From positions 378-64,377 of the forward strand of contig CANQUN010000003.1 of assembly GCA_947627065.1 (NCBI GenBank): a stretch of DNA of 64,000 nt. Direction: 5' to 3'. Shown piece by piece: positions 6,722 through 57,175 of this stretch. Source of the stretch: an uncultured Clostridia bacterium. GTDB taxonomy: Bacteria > Bacillota > Clostridia > Christensenellales > Borkfalkiaceae. The notes under the pieces are model-generated. The model did no database searches and was not told the DNA's origin. It saw only the letters and a program-made list of their open reading frames with translations. The first letter of the stretch is position 1; each line of letters starts with the position of its first letter. The position numbers and the translations under genes are program-made.

Positions 6722-6786
6722 ACTATATACAAAAACGGCGGGCAGTCAGCCCGCTCACCGACAGTCCGCAACATCTTTATATAATC

Positions 6787-6835
6787 CTTGGCGCCTCCAT
6801 GGGAGGAGCCGGCGCGTAAGCGCCTGAGGTGGGCA
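6787..6835 (+). repeat. two-hairpin element, solitary copy (variant with GTAA loop)
   Basis: CTTGGCGCCTCC-atg-GGAGGAGCC GGCGC-gtaa-GCGCC TGAGGTGGGCA. Same architecture as the copies at 36970, 37115, 37228, 37387, 39660, 39770, 54559 and 54653. Confidence 0.8.
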
Positions 6836-6937
6836 TTACAACACATAACAAAGCGGTTTGGCGAAAGCCAAACCGCTTTTCTGTATATACAAAAAAACGG
6901 CGGGCAAATTTATCCGCCGTTTTAGTAAAAACCGACG

Positions 6938-7092
6938 TTTTGTGAGATTCAGGCCACTTCTTAATTTTGCGGCCGCAATGCAATCCGTGCCGAAATATGC
7001 CGATAATGCGCGATTCAGGGCACTTCTTATTTTGTGGCAACAATACATCCAATGCCGAAATGTGCCGTTTTTGTGCGTTTTAGGCCGCTTTT
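6938..7092 (+). repeat. three tandem copies of the ~25-nt word (TTTTGTGAGATTCAGGCCACTTC / ATAATGCGCGATTCAGGGCACTTC / TTTTTGTGCGTTTTAGGCCGCTTTT)
   Basis: Read directly at 6938-6960, 7003-7026 and 7068-7092. Members of a family with about 30 copies in the window. Confidence 0.75.
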
Positions 7093-8776: not shown

Positions 8777-9335
8777 AAAATCCTCCACGAACATTATACC
8801 AAAAATAAGCCGTTCAATCAAGCGTTGAACGGATAAAAATAAAACCGCGTGCCGCCAAGTTGAAATGCGGCCGCTTGCGGCTTGCGTTTTTATATAACGC
8901 CGTCGGTCTGTTGCCTTTTTATGTCGGCGGAAGTTTGCGGCCGTCTTTTACGGTGGCACGCGCGTCGGTTGTCAAACAGAATAAAGAAAAAGTCCAACAC
9001 GCACCCGCTGTCCTTATATAAATAAGGCCATAAATAAAATTGCCGTTCCGCAGGTCTGAACCAAGTCGACGGCAAGTTGAAATCGATCGCGCCGTCCGCC
9101 GGGAACGAAGCGCAAGCCAAACAGTGGACAGCAATACTCCCCACGTTCAACCGCTCCCGCTCGCGGAAAACGGGCGGCCGCCGCAAACCGAAAACCCTCT
9201 TTTTTGTGTGAAATAGGCCACTAATTTCCAAAAACCACCAAAAAATCCGCCCGCAACGGCAAAAAATTGAAATCAAAAGGGCTTTCTCGGCATGTAAAAA
9301 CCGAAAAAGCCCCGTTTTTTGTGTGAAAAAGGCCA

Positions 9336-13732: not shown

Positions 13733-13754
13733 ATTCAACCTTGCTCCGCATAAC

Positions 13755-13790
13755 AAAAAGCGCCTTTTTTGTGAGAAAAAGGCGCTTAAT
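13755..13790. terminator. palindromic copy of the ~25-nt word, forming a bidirectional hairpin between convergent genes
   Basis: AAAAAGCGCCTTTTTT-gtgag-AAAAAGGCGCTT. A perfect GCGCC/GGCGC plus A/T stem around the GTGAG core of the repeat family. Confidence 0.5.
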
Positions 13791-13862
13791 TCATCTTTTG
13801 CAATCCGTGCGGTTCCCCGCCGCGGCTTTTGGCTTGGTGTTTTAACTGCCGTTATACGCGGG

Positions 13863-21093: not shown

Positions 21094-21130
21094 AAAAGCC
21101 GCCTGAATCGCACATTCCGGCGGCTTTTTG
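21094..21130 (+). terminator. intrinsic terminator after yajC, with the repeat word in its loop
   Basis: AAAAGCCGCC-tgaatcgcacattcc-GGCGGCTTTTTG. Confidence 0.75.
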
Positions 21131-21381
21131 CGTCCCGCTTTCAACCTTGCCCCTGCTTTTTTTCATGCCCCGTCCTGCCCTTTCGCGCCCCGCCGGACGG
21201 GTTTTTTTCTTCCTTCCGCAACCCCGTCTTGCCTTACCCGTGCCGCATACGGGTACGCCTTTTCCCAACTTAAAGCACTTTTGTAACCCCGTTTTTGCCC
21301 TTTCTCTCAACCGCAATCGGCGGTTAGAGTAATAACGGCGGGCGGCCCCGCGTATATTTAGTTAGAAAAAAGGAGGGACTT

Positions 21382-23659: not shown

Positions 23660-23993
23660 TTCAGGCCACTAATTGCAAAACGAGCCGCCAGCCGCCACTT
23701 GCACACCCGCGTCCACCCACCATTCCGCCCGCACATATACCCGTCATTCTGCATTATCTGCACATTTGCGCACCCGTTGCACTTTATTTCCGCCCGACGC
23801 CACTTGTAAATCCCGCATTTACACCCCGCCACGCCAAAATAAGGACGGCAACCGACAAAACAAAGACGGCCTCGCGCCAAAATAAGGACGGTCGTTCGCC
23901 AAAACAAGGACGGCCGGCGGCGGAACAAAAACGGCCGATAATGTGCGAAAAAGGCCACTAATTCAAAAAAAAGGTTGCCCTTGGGAGGAAGTT

Positions 23994-34733: not shown

Positions 34734-36833
34734 ATGCTGGAAAATTACAGAGTTTTCAAAACAGAGATCGGCGGCAGAGAAGTAACCGTCGAAACGGGCA
34801 AGTACGGCGGACAAGCCAACGGTTCCTGCCTCATAAGATGCGGGGACACCGTTGTCATGGTCAACACCTGTATGAGCGAAAAACCGAGAGACGGAATGGA
34901 TTTCTTCCCCCTGTCGGTAGATTATGAAGAAAAGATGTACGCCGTCGGCAAGATACCGGGCGGCTTCAAAAAGAGAGAGGGCCGCGCGAGCGACAAGGCC
35001 ATTCTGACCTCCCGCCTCATCGACAGGCCGATAAGGCCGCTCTTCCCCAAGGGCTTGTTCAACGACGTTACCGTCACGGCAACCGCCCTTTCGGTGGATA
35101 CCAACATTCCTCCCGAACCCTTCGCCATGCTCGGCAGTTCGGTCGCCCTCAGCATTTCGGACATTCCGTTCGCAGGCCCCACGGGATCGGTGCTCGTGGG
35201 CATGGTAGACGGTAATTACGTCATCAACCCCGATTCCGCCCAGAGAGAAAGAAGCGCGCTTTCCCTTTACCTTTCCGGCACCAAGGAAGCCATAATGATG
35301 GTTGAAGCGGGCGCCAAGGAAATAAGCGACGACGAGATGGTGGGCGCCATTCTCTTCGGCCATGAAGAAATCAAAAAGCAGTGCGCTTTCATAGAATCCA
35401 TCGTCGCCGAGGTCGGAAAACCCAAGAGGGAGATGGAACTTTACCACGTTCCCGAAGATCTGGACGCGGCCGTCCGCGCCTACGCTTCCGAAAAACTCGA
35501 TTGGGCGCTTGACACCTTTGACAGGCAGATCCGCCAGACCCGTCAGGACGAAGTGGAAAAGGACTGCATCGAGCATTTTGCCGACGTTTACGAGGGAATG
35601 GAGAGGGAAATAAAGGATTCTCTCTACTACATAACCAAAGAGAAGGTCCGCGCCAAGATAACCAACGGCGGCGTCCGCCCCGACGGCAGAAAGTTGACCG
35701 ACATCAGACCCATCTGGTGCGAACACGGCGTCCTGCCGAGAGTTCACGGCTCGGGCGTGTTCACGAGGGGACTCACTCAGGTTCTCACCACCTGCACCCT
35801 CGGCACCATAAGCGAAGTGCAGAAACTCGAAGGTCTCGACGACGAACAGTACAAGAGATACCTCCACCACTACAACATGCCCGGTTACGCTTCGGGCGAA
35901 GCCAAGCCCCTGCGCAGCCCCGGCCGCCGCGAGATAGGCCACGGCGCCCTTGCCGAACGCGCGCTCGAACCCGTCATTCCTTCCGAGGACGAGTTCCCCT
36001 ACGCCATAAGGCTGGTGTCCGAAGTTCTCTCCTCCAACGGCTCCACCTCTCAGGCCAGCGTCTGCGGCTCCACCCTCGCCCTCATGGACGCGGGCGTTCC
36101 CATCAAGGCGCCCGTCGCGGGCATAGCCATGGGCCTTATCAAGGACGTGGACAGCGGCAAGATTTCCATAATGAGCGACATACAGGGTCTTGAAGATTTC
36201 CTCGGAGACATGGACTTTAAGGTAGCGGGTACCGCAAAGGGCATAACCGCCATCCAGATGGATATAAAGATCAAGGGAATTGACGAAACCATTCTCCGCA
36301 AGGCCATATCGCAGGCCAACGAGGGCAGGCATTTCATTTTGGGCAAGATGCTCGAATGTATCCCCGAACCAAACAAGGAACTTTCCAAATACGCCCCCAA
36401 GATCATAACCTTCACCATCAACCCCGACAAGATAAGAGAAGTCATCGGCTCGGGCGGCAAGGTTATCAACAAGATTATAGAGGAAACGGGCGTCAAGATA
36501 GACATAACCGACGACGGCAAGGTCAACATAGCCACCTACGGCGAGGACATGACCAACGCCAACAGGGCAAAGGCCATAATCCTCTCCATAGCCAAGGATC
36601 TCGAAGTCGGCGACATGTTCATCTCCACCGTCGCGAGAATACTCCCCAAAGTCGGTGCTTTCGTCGAACTCTCCCCGGGTAAGGACGGCATGATTCACAT
36701 CTCCAAGATGAGCGACCACAAGATAAACAGCGTCGAGGACGTCCTGTCCATAGGCGACACCGTAAAGGTCGAAATCATCAAGATAGGAGAAAAGGGCATA
36801 GACCTCAAACTCCTCGAAAAGATGGACAACTGA
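34734..36833 (+). CDS. pnp: polyribonucleotide nucleotidyltransferase (PNPase)
   Basis: Two RNase PH domains, then KH and S1 domains (GDMFISTVARILPKVGAFVELSPGKDGMIHISK). AAGGAG RBS. Confidence 0.97.
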   Translation: MLENYRVFKTEIGGREVTVETGKYGGQANGSCLIRCGDTVVMVNTCMSEKPRDGMDFFPLSVDYEEKMYAVGKIPGGFKKREGRASDKAILTSRLIDRPIRPLFPKGLFNDVTVTATALSVDTNIPPEPFAMLGSSVALSISDIPFAGPTGSVLVGMVDGNYVINPDSAQRERSALSLYLSGTKEAIMMVEAGAKEISDDEMVGAILFGHEEIKKQCAFIESIVAEVGKPKREMELYHVPEDLDAAVRAYASEKLDWALDTFDRQIRQTRQDEVEKDCIEHFADVYEGMEREIKDSLYYITKEKVRAKITNGGVRPDGRKLTDIRPIWCEHGVLPRVHGSGVFTRGLTQVLTTCTLGTISEVQKLEGLDDEQYKRYLHHYNMPGYASGEAKPLRSPGRREIGHGALAERALEPVIPSEDEFPYAIRLVSEVLSSNGSTSQASVCGSTLALMDAGVPIKAPVAGIAMGLIKDVDSGKISIMSDIQGLEDFLGDMDFKVAGTAKGITAIQMDIKIKGIDETILRKAISQANEGRHFILGKMLECIPEPNKELSKYAPKIITFTINPDKIREVIGSGGKVINKIIEETGVKIDITDDGKVNIATYGEDMTNANRAKAIILSIAKDLEVGDMFISTVARILPKVGAFVELSPGKDGMIHISKMSDHKINSVEDVLSIGDTVKVEIIKIGEKGIDLKLLEKMDN

Positions 36834-36838
36834 TGACA

Positions 36839-36866
36839 ATCCGCGGGAGTCATCCCGCGGATTTTT
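36839..36866 (+). terminator. intrinsic terminator after pnp
   Basis: CCGCGGGA-gtca-TCCCGCGG ATTTTT. Confidence 0.85.
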
Positions 36867-36969
36867 GTATCCGAAACCCTCCGCTTTTGCGAGAAAAAGG
36901 CCACTTCTTGCTTTTTTCGCTATCCCGTCCCTTGGCCCCAACCCCAACACAACCCGCGCACCCGTACCT

Positions 36970-37557
36970 TTGGCCCCTCCCGAGGAGGGGCCGGCGTGCA
37001 CGCGCCTGAGGTGGGCAACGTACCCCAAAAACCTCATTTTTGTGAGATTCAGGCTGCTTTTGCCTCTACTTCGCCCATCAACCCGCGCCGCCGCTCTGAT
37101 CACTAAACACTAACTTGGCCCCTCCCGAGGAGGGGCTGGCGCGCACGCGCCTGAGGTGGGCAACGAACCTCGCCCATCAACCCGCGCCGCCGCTCTGATC
37201 ACTAATCACTAAACACTCGCCACTAACTTGGCCCCTCCCGAGGAGGGGCCGGCGCGCACGCGCCTGAGGTGGGCAACGTACCCCAAAAACCTCGTTTTTG
37301 TGCGATTCAGACGGCTTTTGCCTCTATCTCGCCCGTCAACCTGCCTCGCCGCTCTGATCACTAATCACTAAACACTCATCACTAACTTGGCCCCTCCCGA
37401 GGAGGGGCCGGCGCGTAGCGCCTGAGGTGGGCAACGAACCCCAAAAACCTCGATTTTGCGCGATTTAGGCGGCTTTTGGGCTAATCATACCCTTTAACCA
37501 AACCAACAATCTCAACGGTTTTGGTGTACCCTCGCCCATCAACCCGCGCCGCCGCTT
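36970..37557 (+). repeat. tandem array of 4 composite units (two-hairpin element + ~25-nt word + CTCGCCCATCAACCCGCGCCGCCGCTCTGATCACTAA..ACTAAC segment)
   Basis: Two-hairpin copies at 36970, 37115, 37228 and 37387 (unit lengths 145, 113, 159 nt). Word copies at 37037, 37295 and 37454. C segments at 37069, 37169, 37328 and a partial one at 37531. Confidence 0.85.
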
Positions 37558-37650
37558 CCTTACAGCCCCAAAAGCAACCCGCCAACCAGCGGTAATAAAC
37601 GCGGACGCCCCGCCGTATAATATACCGATTATCGAATTATAAGGCGAGAA

Positions 37651-38364
37651 ATGGGTATATTATTAAAGGGCCGCAGGCTTGCGGCCGCGTCCAATCTGCT
37701 GCTCATCGTAATAACGCTCACGGTTGCCGCCGTGTGCTTCATTCCGCAGCCCGCTGCCACCGTCTCCGCGCCCGCTCCTTATACCTGCGGCAACAGGCAG
37801 AGCAACAAAGTTTCGCTCATGTTCAACGTTTACGAAGGGGCGGAACAAGTGGGCGAAATACTCGATATTCTGCGAAATAGGGGACTTAAGGCCACTTTCT
37901 TCATGGGCGGGTGCTTTGCCGACGACCACACTGATCTGCTCGTGCGCATAGCGGCGGAGGGGCACGAACTTGCCAACCACGGTTACTTTCACATCGCGCA
38001 GGACACGGCGGACGAGGAGAGGAACCGCGAGGAAATAGAGAGCACGGATAAACTGATAAGAGCGGCAACGGGCGTAAAGCCCGTGCTGTTCGCCCCGCCG
38101 TCGGGCGCGTACGGCCCCGCCACGCTTAATGCCGCACGGCAACTCGGCTACTTCGTCGTGCTCTGGTCAAAGGACACGATAGATTGGAAGTACTCCGACC
38201 CCGACAAGGTGTACACCCGTGCGACGGACGGAATCAAGGGGGGAGACCTCGTGCTCATGCACCCCAAACCGCACACCGTGCAGGCGCTGCCGCGCATACT
38301 CGACAGGCTCGCCGCGCTCGGTCTCGTGCAGACAACTGTTTCAGAAAATATTTTCGGAGAATGA
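37651..38364 (+). CDS. polysaccharide deacetylase (NodB-homology; YlxY/PdaB-like)
   Basis: N-terminal TM, ATFFMGG, HELANHGYFH, APPSGAY. pnp-deacetylase-M16 peptidase synteny as in B. subtilis pnpA-ylxY-mlpA. Confidence 0.85.
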   Translation: MGILLKGRRLAAASNLLLIVITLTVAAVCFIPQPAATVSAPAPYTCGNRQSNKVSLMFNVYEGAEQVGEILDILRNRGLKATFFMGGCFADDHTDLLVRIAAEGHELANHGYFHIAQDTADEERNREEIESTDKLIRAATGVKPVLFAPPSGAYGPATLNAARQLGYFVVLWSKDTIDWKYSDPDKVYTRATDGIKGGDLVLMHPKPHTVQALPRILDRLAALGLVQTTVSENIFGE

Positions 38365-38366
38365 AT

Positions 38367-39596
38367 ATGGTTAAACTAAAGACATACCCCAACGGTCTCA
38401 GGCTCATCGTCAAATCGCTCGAAGGCGTGTTTTCGGTAACGGCGGGCGTGCTCGTCGGTGCGGGTTCCCGCTACGAAACGGCCGAAAACAACGGAATTTC
38501 CCACTTCATCGAGCACATGCTCTTCAAGGGAACAGAAAAGCGCACGGCGTTTGAAATTTCGGACGCCATCGACCGCATAGGCGGGCAGATCAACGCCTTT
38601 ACAACCAAGGAGACAACCTGCTATTACGTCAAGTCCACCGCCGAACACACCGAGGAAGCGGCGGAAGTCCTCGCGGACATCTTCTTCCACTCCCGCTTTG
38701 ACGAAAAGGAGACCGAACGTGAAAAGGGCGTAATCAAAGAGGAGATAAACATGTACGAGGACACGCCCGACGAACTCTGCTTTGACCTGCTTGCCGAAGC
38801 CCACTTCGGCAACAGCGGGCTGGGCGCTTCCGTCCTCGGTCCTGCGGAGAACATCGACGCCTTCACCCGCAAGGACATAGACGACTACATGGCGCGTTTT
38901 TACCTGCCCCAAAACACCGTCATCTGCTTTGCCGGCAACATAACTTTTGACGAGGCCGAACGCATCACCGACGAGTATTTTGCAAACTCCTTTCCTCAAA
39001 AAGTGGCCTTTATCCCACAGGAATCGCCCTGTCCGGTCATTTTTGGCAGAAAGGACAAGAAGAAGGAGATAGAGCAGGCGCACGTCTGTTTTGCCTACCG
39101 CGGCTGCGCTTACGGCTCGAAAGAGGTCGACTATTTCAACCTGTTCAACACCGCCCTCGGCGGCGGAATGTCAAGCGTGCTGTTCCAGAAGGTGAGGGAA
39201 GAGTTGGGGCTTGCCTACAACGTCTACTCCTTCGTTTCAACTTACAAGGACTGCGGCGTTCTCGGCGTCTACGCGGGCGTAAACCCGTCCAACCTCGACC
39301 TTGCCGTCAACTGCATTCTCGACGAAATCGCCAAATTCAAGCGCAGCGGCCTTACCGAATACGAGTTTGAACGGGCGAAGGAGCAGATAAAGGGCAACTT
39401 CATCTTCAGTCAGGAATCCAATTCCTCGCAGATGCTGCTCTACGCAAAATATCTGCTGTACACGGGCAAGATTTTCGATTTTGAAAAGAAGATACAAACC
39501 ATAAACTCGGTGGGCAGAAAAACCCTCAACGCCTTCATAAAGGACGAATTTGACATCTCCGCCTACTCCAAATCCATCGTCGCCAAGGACATCTGA
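38367..39596 (+). CDS. M16-family zinc peptidase (MlpA/YmxG-like)
   Basis: GISHFIEHMLFKGT (inverted HxxEH zinc motif). Start ATG 38367 lies 6 nt after GGAGA; ATG 38361 is the alternative. Confidence 0.88.
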   Translation: MVKLKTYPNGLRLIVKSLEGVFSVTAGVLVGAGSRYETAENNGISHFIEHMLFKGTEKRTAFEISDAIDRIGGQINAFTTKETTCYYVKSTAEHTEEAAEVLADIFFHSRFDEKETEREKGVIKEEINMYEDTPDELCFDLLAEAHFGNSGLGASVLGPAENIDAFTRKDIDDYMARFYLPQNTVICFAGNITFDEAERITDEYFANSFPQKVAFIPQESPCPVIFGRKDKKKEIEQAHVCFAYRGCAYGSKEVDYFNLFNTALGGGMSSVLFQKVREELGLAYNVYSFVSTYKDCGVLGVYAGVNPSNLDLAVNCILDEIAKFKRSGLTEYEFERAKEQIKGNFIFSQESNSSQMLLYAKYLLYTGKIFDFEKKIQTINSVGRKTLNAFIKDEFDISAYSKSIVAKDI

Positions 39597-39616
39597 CCCA
39601 GCCCTGAAACCCTCGA

Positions 39617-39818
39617 TTTTGTGCGATTCACGCGGCTTTTGGGTAACCGAACTAACACATGGCCCCTCCCGAGGAGGGGCCGGCGCGGAGCGCCTGAGGT
39701 GGGCAACGCCCCCCACAGCCAATCTGCTTCGCTGCTCTGCTCGCTAATCACTAAACACTCATCACTAACTTGGTCCCTCCCGAGGAGGGGCCGGCGCGGA
39801 GCGCCTGAGGTGGGCAAC
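39617..39818 (+). repeat. repeat cluster: one ~25-nt word and two two-hairpin elements separated by a CACTAA-rich segment
   Basis: Word at 39617-39643; two-hairpin copies at 39660-39707 and 39770-39818; GCTAATCACTAAACACTCATCACTAAC at 39743-39769. Confidence 0.8.
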
Positions 39819-40020
39819 GCCTCCAACCCGACCCGACAGCCCTTTTTTGTAAGGAGCGGCTGTTTGTCTCGCCCCCATCAAAGGCTCTCGATTATATAAA
39901 AACCCCCGATAACCTGCGAAAAAGCCCACTTATTCATCTTGTAAAGCCTCTTGTCCCGCCAAACCCAAAAACCAAACCCAACAACCAAAACCCGCCAAGC
40001 CGTTACCCAATCCAAACTCA

Positions 40021-47356: not shown

Positions 47357-48283
47357 ATGGAACAGATATACGATCCCGAACGACTCGCCACGGCCCTCGT
47401 CGCCACCGCCATCCCGCACGTTCGCGGGGAGAGGCTTGCCGCGCACACGACCATCGGCATAGGCGGAACCGCCGACTTCTACCTGACCCCGCGCACGGAG
47501 GCCGAATTCAACGAGGCCGTCGCCCTGTGCCGTAGCGTCCGCGCAAAATTCACCGTTCTCGGCGGGGGAAGCAACGTTCTCGTGTCGGACGCGGGCTTTC
47601 GCGGCGCGGTGATTTCCACCGAAAAACTCTGTAACATATCCGTGGAAAAGAGGGCGGGAGACCTCGCGTTCATCCGTGCGGAAGCGGGCGTTCCGCTCGC
47701 TAAACTCACTCACTTCGCATGTGAAAACGGCCTTGGAGGCACGGAGTTCCTTGCGGGAATCCCGGGCAGCGTGGGCGGCGCGTTGGCCATGAACGCGGGC
47801 TGTTTCGGCCGATCCGTGTCGGACATCACCGTCTCCGTCCAAGCGGCAGACGGCAGAAAAACGGTGATTTTAAGCCGCGAGATGTGCGGCTTTGCCTACC
47901 GTAACAGCGTCTTTCCGGGTGGCGGCATTTTTGCAATAAGTGCCCTTTTTCTCACAAAAACGGCCAAAAAGGACAAGATAGAAGAGACGACAAAAGCGTT
48001 TTTGTCCATGCGCCGCGGCCAGCCCCGCGCAAGGAGCATGGGCAGCGTTTTCAAAAACACGGCCGCCTATCCCGCTGGCCGACTGATAGAGGAAAGCGGC
48101 CTTAAAGGCACCCGCGCGGGCGGCGCCTGCATCTCGCAAGAACACGCCAACTTCATCGTAAACGTCGGTTCGGCCTCGGCCGAGGACGTGCGCACGCTCA
48201 TAGCCATCGCCAAAGCCGCGGTGAGGGAGAGGACGGGCATAACCCTTGAAGAAGAGATAAGATACATAGGAGAATTCACTTGA
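47357..48283 (+). CDS. murB: UDP-N-acetylenolpyruvoylglucosamine reductase
   Basis: HTTIGIGGTADFY, GGGSNVLV, GSVGGALAMNAGCFG, SVFKN. Confidence 0.92.
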   Translation: MEQIYDPERLATALVATAIPHVRGERLAAHTTIGIGGTADFYLTPRTEAEFNEAVALCRSVRAKFTVLGGGSNVLVSDAGFRGAVISTEKLCNISVEKRAGDLAFIRAEAGVPLAKLTHFACENGLGGTEFLAGIPGSVGGALAMNAGCFGRSVSDITVSVQAADGRKTVILSREMCGFAYRNSVFPGGGIFAISALFLTKTAKKDKIEETTKAFLSMRRGQPRARSMGSVFKNTAAYPAGRLIEESGLKGTRAGGACISQEHANFIVNVGSASAEDVRTLIAIAKAAVRERTGITLEEEIRYIGEFT

Positions 48284-54043: not shown

Positions 54044-54130
54044 CCCCCTAAAACGCACAAAAACGGCACATTTTGTGTTGTCGCGCCTCATAACCCCTCA
54101 ACTGTTCTCGGCAGATTGTTCAGGCCAAAC

Positions 54131-54420
54131 CTTTGTCAGTTGGTCGTAAATCCATTTCGGCCGTTTGCGCTCTTGCCGTGCCAACCTATTGTTGGCCGAT
54201 TGCTACTCTCAATTCTTTTTTGGGTTAGTTGTGCGCTTACCCAAAACCCTTTGTAGGTTCGGCCACTCCGTCCCGCCAACTATTTGTCGGTCAGTTACAA
54301 CTTCAAAATCCTTTTTGGGTCGGTTACGCTCTTACCTCGCTCCCGCTTGTCGGTCGGTTACATGCTTGCCAAAACCCTTTTGTTGGCTCGGTTGTAAAAT
54401 CCCTTTGTCGGTCGATTAGT
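54131..54420 (+). repeat. about 10 degenerate direct repeats (20-34 nt period) with core CC(C)TTTGTCGGTCGGTTAC
   Basis: Units start at 54131, 54152, 54181, 54215, 54242, 54276, 54310, 54342, 54375 and 54401. G/T-rich on the + strand. Confidence 0.6.
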
Positions 54421-54558: not shown

Positions 54559-54699
54559 TTGGCGCCTCCTCGGGAGGAGCTGTCGCGGAGCGACTGAGGT
54601 GGCCCTCAAACAATCCGTCAACCCCACCGACACTCGGGCAACCGCGCCCGACTTGGCGCCTCCTCGGGAGGAGCTGTCGCGGAGCGACTGAGGTGGGCC
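54559..54699 (+). repeat. two copies of a sequence variant of the two-hairpin element (94-nt period)
   Basis: 54559-54605 and 54653-54699: TTGGCGCCTCC-tcg-GGAGGAGCT GTCGC-gga-GCGAC TGAGGTGG(C/G)C. Confidence 0.8.
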
Positions 54700-57028: not shown

Positions 57029-57070
57029 CGGCGTCCGCTCAGGTCTTTGCTCTTGCGGAAAACGGCCGTT

Positions 57071-57175
57071 AATGCGCGAAAAAGGCCACTTTTTGCCGCG
57101 ATGTGTCAAAAAGGCCATTTTGCCGCCAAGCACCAAAAATGGCACTTTTGCCGCAAAGCACCAAAAAACACCGCC
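57071..57175 (+). repeat. three to four tandem ~28-33-nt units derived from the 3' half of the ~25-nt word
   Basis: AATGCGCGAAAAAGGCCACTTTTTGCCGCG / ATGTGTCAAAAAGGCCATTTTGCCGCCAAGCACC / AAAAATGGCACTTTTGCCGCAAAGCACC / AAAAAACACCGCC. Confidence 0.6.

Follow-up and report, generated by a model that had tools for sequence, protein, structure and literature searches.

We describe an intergenic repeat in a 64,000-nt stretch of DNA (hereafter, the window) from contig CANQUN010000003.1 of an uncultured Clostridia bacterium of the Borkfalkiaceae. The repeat is a unit of ~48 nt in which two hairpins are followed by a near-invariant tail, CTGAGGTGGGC, and it belongs to a family with >100 related copies overall, found in two other Christensenellales metagenome-assembled genomes (MAGs) and in many gut or rumen phage contigs. 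From its sequence, we conclude that the element is probably a BoxC-like interspersed repeat that acts as DNA, with the blocks of a class II intrastrand purine-motif triplex and a hairpin as linker. Triplex formation itself, selection on the triplex, the mode by which units spread, and any effect on transcription or replication are what we infer, and it is covariation within the family that supports the triplex.

The evidence that carries this conclusion is the relationship between the tail and hairpin 1. The tail varies within the family and has no Watson-Crick complement nearby; instead, it is the mirror image of the hairpin 1 purine arm. When the arm is read from its base upward and the tail from its 5′ end, G stands opposite G and A stands opposite A or T, and at the first arm/tail position C is found opposite T, G opposite G, and A opposite A. 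Mirror symmetry with a G*G, A*A, T*A code is the rule for a reverse-Hoogsteen third strand that lies antiparallel to the purine strand of a duplex (the purine motif). Thus, read as pyrimidine arm, purine arm, linker, and third strand, the sequence of the element fits an antiparallel purine-motif triplex code, and G*G, A*A, T*A, or T*C accounts for 620 of the 632 tail/arm cells. The correspondence depends on register, because shifting the tail by even one base lowers the compatible fraction to 37–47%, as compared with 98% in register. There are 12 distinct arm types, with a matching tail on each, and with one haplotype per arm type the fit is 93/96, as compared with 70 +/- 3.7 in shuffles, where none of 20,000 shuffles reached 93. 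Read base to loop, arm GAGGGGA is followed by tail GAGGGGT, GAGGGAA by GAGGGAT, GGGGGAA by GGGGGAT, GAGAGGG by GAGAGGG, GAGGAGA by GAGGAGT, GGGGGGA by GGGGGGA, and, in two sequence types of the window (types B and C), GAGGAGG by GAGGTGG. A larger sample detected by regular expression (regex) adds further matched types, for example GAGGAAA with GAGGATT; the 86% fit in that sample is a lower bound because the re-parse misreads hairpin 2 of one subtype (alpha, see below). In the window, types B and C have 7–8 of 8 positions that are triplex-compatible, and in copy 6, which is of type A, tail GAGGTGG mirrors arm GGAGGGG with 6/7 positions compatible and a T opposite the sole A of the arm. A generic triplex scanner gave no output on the window at its settings, which were too strict.

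Both stems covary as well. Among 82 distinct copies, pairing holds in 98.4% of stem cells, as compared with 38–57% in slid controls, and compensatory changes are seen at 9 of 13 pairs (134 cells); the alignment was fitted to the covariance model, which favours the structure. The sequence of the upper stem of hairpin 2 varies throughout the family while compensatory changes keep it paired, and within a single array on one phage contig (L119) it alternates between GTCGCC/GGCGAC, GTCAGC/GCTGAC, and GTCGGC/GCCGAC. In hairpin 1, a homopyrimidine block is Watson-Crick complementary to the homopurine block that follows it, in the window and in the family, and the 3′ arm is 100% purine over six positions family-wide.

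The stems fold equally well as DNA on either strand and are also predicted to fold as RNA, in ViennaRNA folds that cover the two hairpins only, so it is the tail rather than the hairpins alone that sets the strand asymmetry of the unit. Two observations point to the folding strand. Outside the closing pair, wobbles on the purine-rich strand are of the G.T type in 12 cells and of the A.C type in 3, and the closing pair is itself G.T in 50 of the 82 distinct copies. In addition, the frequent T in the tail opposite A in the arm suits T*A-T on the purine strand, whereas the complement would need a non-standard pyrimidine-motif triple. From the wobble asymmetry and the T-opposite-A cells, we conclude that the folding strand is the purine-rich strand.

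The nine copies of the window were first listed in a first-pass annotation made from its letters, which described them as + strand, two-hairpin, and intergenic, with conserved stems and varying loops. All of this was borne out. A strict pattern of hairpin 1, hairpin 2, and tail matches the window exactly nine times, on the + strand only (at 6794, 36976, 37121, 37234, 37393, 39665, 39776, 54565, and 54659), and has zero matches in 100 dinucleotide-preserving shuffles of the window. A covariance model built from the nine copies (R1), run with filters off, returns the same nine as full copies at 71–86 bits, with no partial or - strand copies above noise in the window. The coordinates given were correct except that some starts were off by 1–2 nt, and the tail, which had been called invariant, matches exactly in eight copies, while the ninth differs by one nucleotide (CTGAGGTGGCC) at 54594. 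Substitutions at 36997, 37137, and 39774 had been read as C>T in the stems, and each is indeed T on the + strand and gives a G.T(U) pair. The view that the unit is structured and strand-asymmetric agrees with the wobble counts above. The lack of a match to a known Rfam family also holds: Rfam 15 gave no gathering-level matches in the window and none at E≤10, and at the elements, permissive Rfam searches of 36800–40000 and six carrier loci did not rise above noise. Various other candidates were dropped because their topology is unlike that of the element or because Rfam, which includes the family concerned, gave no match, namely hepatitis delta virus (HDV)-like, pistol, twister, and other ribozymes, put-type antiterminators, attC sites, CRISPR-repeat mimics, and N4-type hairpin promoters.

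Pairing among the window copies stands at 97.6% of stem cells. The region 39660–39818 holds two copies of CTTGG-CCCCTCC-CGA-GGAGGGG-CC-GGCGC-GGA-GCGCC-TGAGGTGGGCAAC, the hairpin loops differ among copies, and a compensatory change in hairpin 2, from G-C to T-A, is present in both dnaE-side copies only. The second linker, which is hairpin 2 plus 1 nt, measures 14–15 nt in the window. Two independent ENA assemblies from the same organism (ERZ27249389 and ERZ27249386) reproduce the copies at 6787, 39660, and 39770 with 99.9% identity, so the repeats are not assembly artefacts. All nine copies lie between predicted genes, in the spacers rpsI/PNP_UDP phosphorylase (- strand), pnp/polysaccharide deacetylase, M16 peptidase/ArsR regulator, and dnaE/glgB. 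The four pnp copies include a 258-nt segmental duplication, so the window contains only four independent loci. Copy 8 is the window copy closest to the wider family, with a GTC...GAC hairpin 2 and a G.T closing pair, and it lies 23 nt past a terminator-like hairpin in the dnaE-glgB spacer. Table 1 gives the coordinates.

Table 1. Copies of the two-hairpin element in the window, with the parts of copies 6 and 7 (Y, pyrimidine; R, purine).
Feature	Position	Strand	Description	Basis
Copy 1, type B	6787..6835	+	GGCGCCTCC-ATG-GGAGGAGCC / GGCGC-GTAA-GCGCC / TGAGGTGGGC; between the rpsI terminator-like hairpin and the convergent phosphorylase gene; tail against purine arm, 8/8 triplex-compatible positions	pattern, R1; reproduced in assembly L085
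Copy 2, type A	36970..37019	+	first of four downstream of pnp; hairpin 2 G.T pair (T at 36997)	
Copy 3, type A	37115..37164	+	hairpin 1 closing pair G.T (T at 37137)	
Copy 4, type A	37228..37277	+	opens the second unit of the segmental duplication 36970-37227 / 37228-37485	
Copy 5, type A	37387..37435	+	hairpin 2 loop of 3 nt	
Copy 6, type A	39660..39707	+	first of two downstream of the M16 peptidase gene	reproduced in assembly L086
Copy 6 Y arm, hairpin 1	39661..39669	+	GGCCCCTCC	sequence; pairing counted
Copy 6 R arm, hairpin 1	39673..39681	+	GGAGGGGCC; proposed central triplex strand	
Copy 6 hairpin 2	39682..39694	+	GGCGC-GGA-GCGCC; proposed structured linker returning the tail to the base of hairpin 1	
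Copy 6 tail	39695..39704	+	TGAGGTGGGC; proposed reverse-Hoogsteen third strand	arm/tail comparison
Copy 7, type A	39770..39818	+	hairpin 1 T.G pair (T at 39774)	pattern, R1; second assembly
Copy 7 Y arm	39772..39780	+	GGTCCCTCC	
Copy 7 R arm	39784..39792	+	GGAGGGGCC	
Copy 7 hairpin 2	39793..39805	+	linker	
Copy 7 tail	39806..39815	+	TGAGGTGGGC; mirror repeat	
Copy 8, type C	54559..54605	+	GGCGCCTCC-TCG-GGAGGAGCT / GTCGC-GGA-GCGAC / TGAGGTGGCC	
Copy 9, type C	54653..54699	+		pattern, R1

Beyond the window, R1 gave one weak match just downstream of pnp in a rabbit-gut MAG (L049), and a structural scan found three more copies in a second MAG (L031). In these relatives the architecture is kept while the hairpin 1 stems read GGCTCCCC/GGGGAGCC and GGCTCCTTT/AAGGGAGCT, hairpin 2 reads GTCAYGC/GCRTGAC, and the tails are TGAGGGG and TGAGGGA. 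A second covariance model (R2) together with two pattern scans of IMG/VR gave ~100 copies in phage contigs. Model matches number 21 in six phage contigs and 96 in 30 more, the aligned family matches come to 95, of which 82 are distinct, and the exact core pattern is present in at least 120 IMG/VR stretches. The carrier contigs encode terminase and portal proteins, and in the GenBank phage collection the only matches are in unannotated human-faecal "Bacteriophage sp." records. Together, the copies make up a large, widespread, and previously uncatalogued family of gut and rumen Clostridia and above all of their phages; a literature search returned nothing relevant on the sequence words or on Christensenellaceae repeats. 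Since it is common in gut and rumen phage contigs, the family may matter for phage annotation, assembly breaks, recombination hot spots, and operon-level transcription.

The family consensus has an A/T-rich flank, then GGCTCCCC-[TGTGTAA or TCGCA or TTTA]-GGGGAGCT, then GTCnnn-loop-nnnGAC, and then TGAGGGGTTGT; GGCTCCCCTGTGTAAGGGGAGCTGTCAGCGAAGCTGACTGAGGGGTTGT is a consensus unit, GGGGAGSTG-N(10-30)-GACKGAGGGG is the family core, and the second linker reaches ~36 nt in relatives. Two subtypes can be told apart, beta (GGCTCCCC...GAGCT...TGAGGGG) and alpha (GCCTCCCC...GAGGT...GGAGGGG). Units may stand alone, form inverted two-subtype pairs, or make up tandem arrays; alpha and beta are often inverted tail to tail, or form beta-alpha-beta clusters, and such alpha/beta inverted pairs are present in L087, L091, and L119 and absent from the window. 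One phage has a cluster of this kind in nearly every intergenic spacer in addition to a 920-nt tandem array with a period of ~52 nt. In that array (L119:7099-8070), the ~52-nt units run head to tail with inverted alpha units interleaved, and directly behind it come five CATTGTC repeats, whose iteron-like arrangement could point to a replication origin. Between near-identical phage contigs, single units or alpha/beta pairs are present in one and absent from the other (L104 vs L111/L138, L155 vs L111, and L161 vs L181). The filled and empty sites have replacement-type junctions with no consistent target-site duplication; at one filled site, ACTCCTT flanks the unit on both sides.

Orientation relative to genes also bears on which molecule folds. 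Gene strands were taken from a codon model trained on window genes and checked against Pfam and PHROGs; it replaced a self-trained gene caller that had picked shadow open reading frames (ORFs) in L031. The model-based set has 40 copies antisense to both neighbours and 20 that are sense to both; the window contributes six of these 20, so that outside the window the count is 40 antisense vs 14 sense. The regex-based set has 101 antisense vs 32 sense copies, with only antisense copies at 37 loci and only sense copies at 2. Thus, the co-orientation with genes that the first-pass annotation had noted is not a general property, because phage copies are antisense at ~3:1, and the sense-transcript RNA role that it had entertained is weighed against by this bias, orientation being the very yardstick it had proposed. 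It had left the choice between a folded + transcript and + strand single-stranded DNA (ssDNA). The ssDNA reading is the closer one and the transcript reading is not supported, since the mirror code, the strand of the wobbles, and the mostly antisense copies all argue that the functional form is single-stranded DNA rather than a sense transcript.

The window copies themselves lie past terminator-like hairpins and ahead of the next promoter. They are followed by TGAGGTGGGCAAC and preceded by CTTGG, which leaves a T-tract on neither strand, and terminator scans list separate hairpins upstream of the copies, so we rejected an intrinsic terminator for them. At copy 6787 (region 6758–6885), a promoter-like CCGACA-16-TATAAT ends 2 nt before the unit and a strong terminator-like hairpin follows at 6850–6879; going by these sequences, this copy could be transcribed as an RNA of ~95 nt.

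The proposed mechanism would start when the purine strand is unpaired, whether at a replication fork, within a transcription bubble, or as part of an extruded structure. Hairpin 1 would then form, with hairpin 2 as a closed linker, and the tail would fold back into the hairpin 1 major groove, running antiparallel to the purine arm and zipping from the base upward to give G*G-C, A*A-T, and T*A-T triples. The predicted number of triples is 6–7 in the window subtype and up to 8–9 in many relatives. Such folds stall DNA and RNA polymerases in vitro, where blockage is stronger when RNA polymerase transcribes the pyrimidine strand (PMC4538819), and purine runs in the coding strand favour R-loops (PMC4538819). 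The orientation data would fit these effects: in phage operons the purine strand is usually the template strand, which would be the milder orientation, and in the window all nine copies have the purine strand on the coding strand but after terminator-like hairpins and before the next promoter, where blockage would be harmless or even useful as insulation. In this genome, units have probably gathered in the dead space that separates terminators from the promoter that follows, where they grew locally by tandem or segmental duplication, along with other repeat modules. A dedicated single-strand transposase is possible but not supported. Further, it is possible, but to us doubtful, that the family has been selected for forming an intramolecular purine-motif triplex, with the fold acting as a programmed, orientation-dependent barrier to transcription or replication, a recognition structure, or a handle for an enzyme that copies units between phage and host genomes. 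If this were true, it would be the first natural DNA triplex backed by extensive evolutionary covariation of Hoogsteen partners. Twelve purine arms with matching mirror tails and a drifting but paired linker are evolutionary evidence for selection on a three-stranded fold. Intrastrand triplex repeats have so far been a curiosity of Proteobacteria and cyanobacteria for which in vivo evidence is weak, and the family makes the in vivo relevance of DNA triplexes directly testable.

Reportedly, Hoyne et al. described class II intrastrand triplex repeats (BoxC/PIT) in 2000 from Escherichia coli and other Proteobacteria. The best-characterized case is BoxC/PIT/TMECO of E. coli, where the order of blocks is pyrimidine, purine, and third block, with the pattern CCCTCNCCC-N3-6-GGGNGAGGG-N3-GGGNGAGGG and a triplex that is stable in vitro by circular dichroism and nuclear magnetic resonance (NMR) (Holder et al. 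2015, PMC4666352). TMECO is always intergenic and strain-variable, and its inverted pairs always combine a type A with a type B (PMC4666352). The present element shares with it the block order, the third block that mirrors the purine block, the G*G-C and A(T)*A-T code, a G/C-rich, multi-copy, strictly intergenic, and patchy occurrence between close relatives, inverted two-subtype pairs, and locus instability, seen here as presence or absence in phage contigs. The TMECO pattern itself has 0 matches in the window, so the element is not a TMECO homologue and is at most of the same structural kind. It differs in that its second linker is a covarying 13–36-nt hairpin rather than 3 nt, its hosts are Firmicutes, and it forms dense tandem arrays, as in L119. 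It also differs in that TMECO was reported to be absent from phages, plasmids, and transposons and to show no orientation bias relative to genes, whereas the present family is abundant on phage contigs and strongly biased. The second linker exceeds what short-loop definitions allow (1–6 nt in ITxF, N3 in TMECO), so ITxF-type searches, which are limited to 1–6 nt, would miss the family. With H-DNA, the element has in common a purine tract with mirror symmetry, R*R-Y triples in antiparallel arrangement, and orientation-dependent polymerase stalling (PMC4538819); H-DNA, however, depends on supercoiling and on a single continuous mirror repeat, and half of its other strand stays unpaired, whereas all three blocks of the element are on one strand and its Watson-Crick part is a hairpin.

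Several points count against a triplex-forming repeat. Because many copies of the family are on related phage contigs, cell counts exaggerate the number of independent events, and the arm-type permutation corrects only partly for kinship among phage copies. In the six type A copies of the window, a tail A opposite an arm G is incompatible and leaves a fit of 6/7. The tail can also pair by Watson-Crick rules over 4–7 nt with the C-run and first loop base, CCCC(T), and may take part in a conformational switch between the two pairings. A hairpin as second linker is without precedent among described intrastrand triplex motifs, and the TMECO triplex was not detected by in vivo dimethyl sulfate footprinting in E. 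coli (PMC4666352). Finally, the blockage reading of the orientation bias extrapolates from T7 RNA polymerase experiments, and within the window co-orientation with genes is inseparable from co-orientation with replication because 47/51 predicted genes are on the + strand.

Among the other explanations that we weighed, a plain hairpin DNA, that is, a palindromic repeat that is selfish or neutral and in some relatives has been co-opted as an intrinsic terminator, strikes us as improbable. On this account, the resemblance between tail and arm would reflect G-rich composition, G-quadruplex potential, or an alternative Watson-Crick helix. Each element does have several G-tracts as well as the tail pairing just mentioned, and many phage copies have an A-rich 5′ flank, so that their complement reads as a hairpin and T-tract on the gene-sense strand. 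What speaks against it is that, among the 12 arm types, the A of the tail shifts along with the A of the arm and does so in one register only, which neither composition nor quadruplex potential explains, that the window copies have no T-tract on either strand, and that G-quadruplexes were excluded for TMECO by NMR (PMC4666352). We also rejected the Watson-Crick switch between tail and 5′ arm as the account of the tail, because in L031, as we read the sequence, it covers ~3 nt as compared with a mirror match of 8/8 and it explains far fewer positions. A sense-strand RNA, whether a 3′-UTR stabiliser, a ribosome- or 16S-interacting motif, or a small RNA, we regard as very unlikely. It would account for the co-orientation of the nine window copies with their upstream genes, for the G.U-compatible substitutions on the same strand, for the promoter-like and terminator-like sequences that frame copy 6787, and for stems that fold as RNA, but family-wide the folding strand is mostly antisense, the window copies come after terminator-like hairpins, no carrier has an Rfam match at the elements, and, unlike a conserved regulatory RNA, the element is missing from the same loci in close relatives. 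The tail, moreover, follows a mirror rule rather than a Watson-Crick one, and purine-motif triplexes are stated to be unable to form in RNA (PMC4666352). The Shine-Dalgarno (SD) and anti-SD logic of the first-pass annotation fails in the relatives: its CCUCC and GGAGG are stem arms that become CTCCCC/GGGGAG, CTCCTTT/AAGGGAG, or CCCCC/GGGGG, and the tail, which it took for an unpaired second SD, changes in step as their mirror image by the G*G, A*A, T*A third-strand code, with no start codon at a sensible distance after it. The finding thus removes a tempting but unsupported story of a ribosome-binding RNA.

It is also unlikely, in our judgment, though less so, that the units are substrates of ssDNA transposition of the REP/REPIN or IS200/IS605-PATE kind, copied by a host or phage HUH (Y1) endonuclease. 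This overlaps with our preferred explanation, in that the fold would be what is recognised, and the main difference is a dedicated enzyme that moves the units. Of the readings in the first-pass annotation, a REP- or MITE-like ssDNA substrate is among those that come closer, and strand-specific folding, a strong orientation bias within replicons, a distribution that is patchy across species and massive in phages, and presence or absence between near-identical contigs all speak for it. The substrates of IS200/IS605 enzymes are folded single strands at the lagging-strand template (PMC6006769), and the ends of IS200/IS605 and PATE resemble the element in their ssDNA folding, strand specificity, and non-canonical base interactions near the hairpin foot; however, the element lacks a transposase gene, a defined cleavage tetranucleotide, and paired left and right ends. 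Likewise, REPs, BIMEs, and REPINs are short, structured, high-copy, lineage-specific intergenic repeats that occur in arrays and module mosaics, with two subtypes alternating in inverted orientation much as in the inverted pairs and beta-alpha-beta clusters here, and they differ in having one imperfect palindrome rather than two hairpins and a mirror tail, and from the window copies in that the latter are all in direct orientation. A conserved GTAG or CGTC tag marks REP/RAYT systems, according to PMC3733652, and no such conserved tag lies within 10 nt of any window copy, where a single GTAG and a single CGTC occur by chance in one loop and one flank. The unit has no terminal inverted repeats, the filled and empty phage sites lack consistent target-site duplications, and the window arrays grew by segmental duplication. 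The RAYT or IS200-IS605 TnpA that the first-pass annotation proposed to look for did not turn up in a crude motif scan of all ORFs in the window, which is part of a genome, and in the collected loci. BoxC/TMECO, the nearest analogue, is likewise without a known transposase (PMC4666352).

The local history of the window points to recent growth. The closest pnp loci are in uncultured Christensenellales/Christensenellaceae MAGs from rumen and gut, with best protein identities of 92% and 91%, and these closest relatives lack the element at the same loci. In the two best relatives the pnp-deacetylase spacer is ~130–180 bp and consists of a terminator and then a promoter, as compared with ~815 bp in the window, where the extra DNA is a mosaic of the element and other repeat modules placed between a conserved terminator-like hairpin and a conserved TATAAT region. 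The element family thus explains why window spacers are several times longer than in relatives. Relatives of the element are present at 2/80 related pnp loci. The strict pattern, which is very narrow, has 0 matches in GTDB species genomes, and the equally narrow window-type pattern has 0 in IMG/VR; a looser pattern has 4 matches in JGI metagenome contigs, all lacking hairpin 2 and taken as chance. Exact-protein look-ups for strain variants gave two short 99.9% identical contigs only and no variants, and the next-best M16 peptidase homologue has only 73% identity. Judging by these comparisons, the window subtype looks species-specific, a recent species-level expansion. In all three chromosomal carriers, copies lie directly downstream of pnp (window 36970–37435, L049:12197-12260, and L031:5572-6044), and this site may be a hot spot or an old insertion; carrier loci were all fetched around pnp, so pnp adjacency is inflated by ascertainment, but even so each locus has 10–20 other spacers. 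In the rabbit-gut MAG, a bacterial large signal recognition particle RNA (131 bits) is encoded at L049:12720-12965 (-), ~500 nt downstream of the element copy. GC skew on the + strand is negative across the window (-0.02 to -0.11) though 92% of genes lie there, the reverse of what is usual for a Firmicutes leading strand; in L031 the gene-strand skew is positive.

The window contains other repeats. Far commoner than the two-hairpin element is a second intergenic family, P, with consensus AAAAnnGCCGTTTTTGTGCGAAAAAGGCCACTTATT and about 35 sites in both orientations, or about one copy per 2 kb (for example 6987–7031, 9183–9229, 13748–13796, 21094–21131(-), 23922–23965, 36868–36913, 39894–39940, 47930–47964(-), and 57052–57097). 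Some P copies consist of an A-tract, a variable stem, a conserved ~15-nt loop, the second half of the stem, and a T-tract, and P often abuts the two-hairpin element (at 37017, 37275, 37433, and 39596). Because it is essentially absent from the 80 related pnp loci, with one marginal match (E=0.002, L006), the P family is also species-specific. The dnaE-glgB spacer (~1.1 kb) holds five or six copies of a sequence resembling TTTGTCGGTCGGTTAC at 54100–54420, unrelated to the other families. The pnp-deacetylase spacer (36834–37650) is a BIME-like mosaic, in which module A (CTCGCCCATCAACCCGCGCCGCCGCT) is at 37069, 37168, 37327, and 37530, and module B, made of C/A-rich, G-poor CACTAA repeats, lies directly 5′ of several element copies in this spacer and elsewhere (37194–37227, 37353–37386, and 39736–39769).

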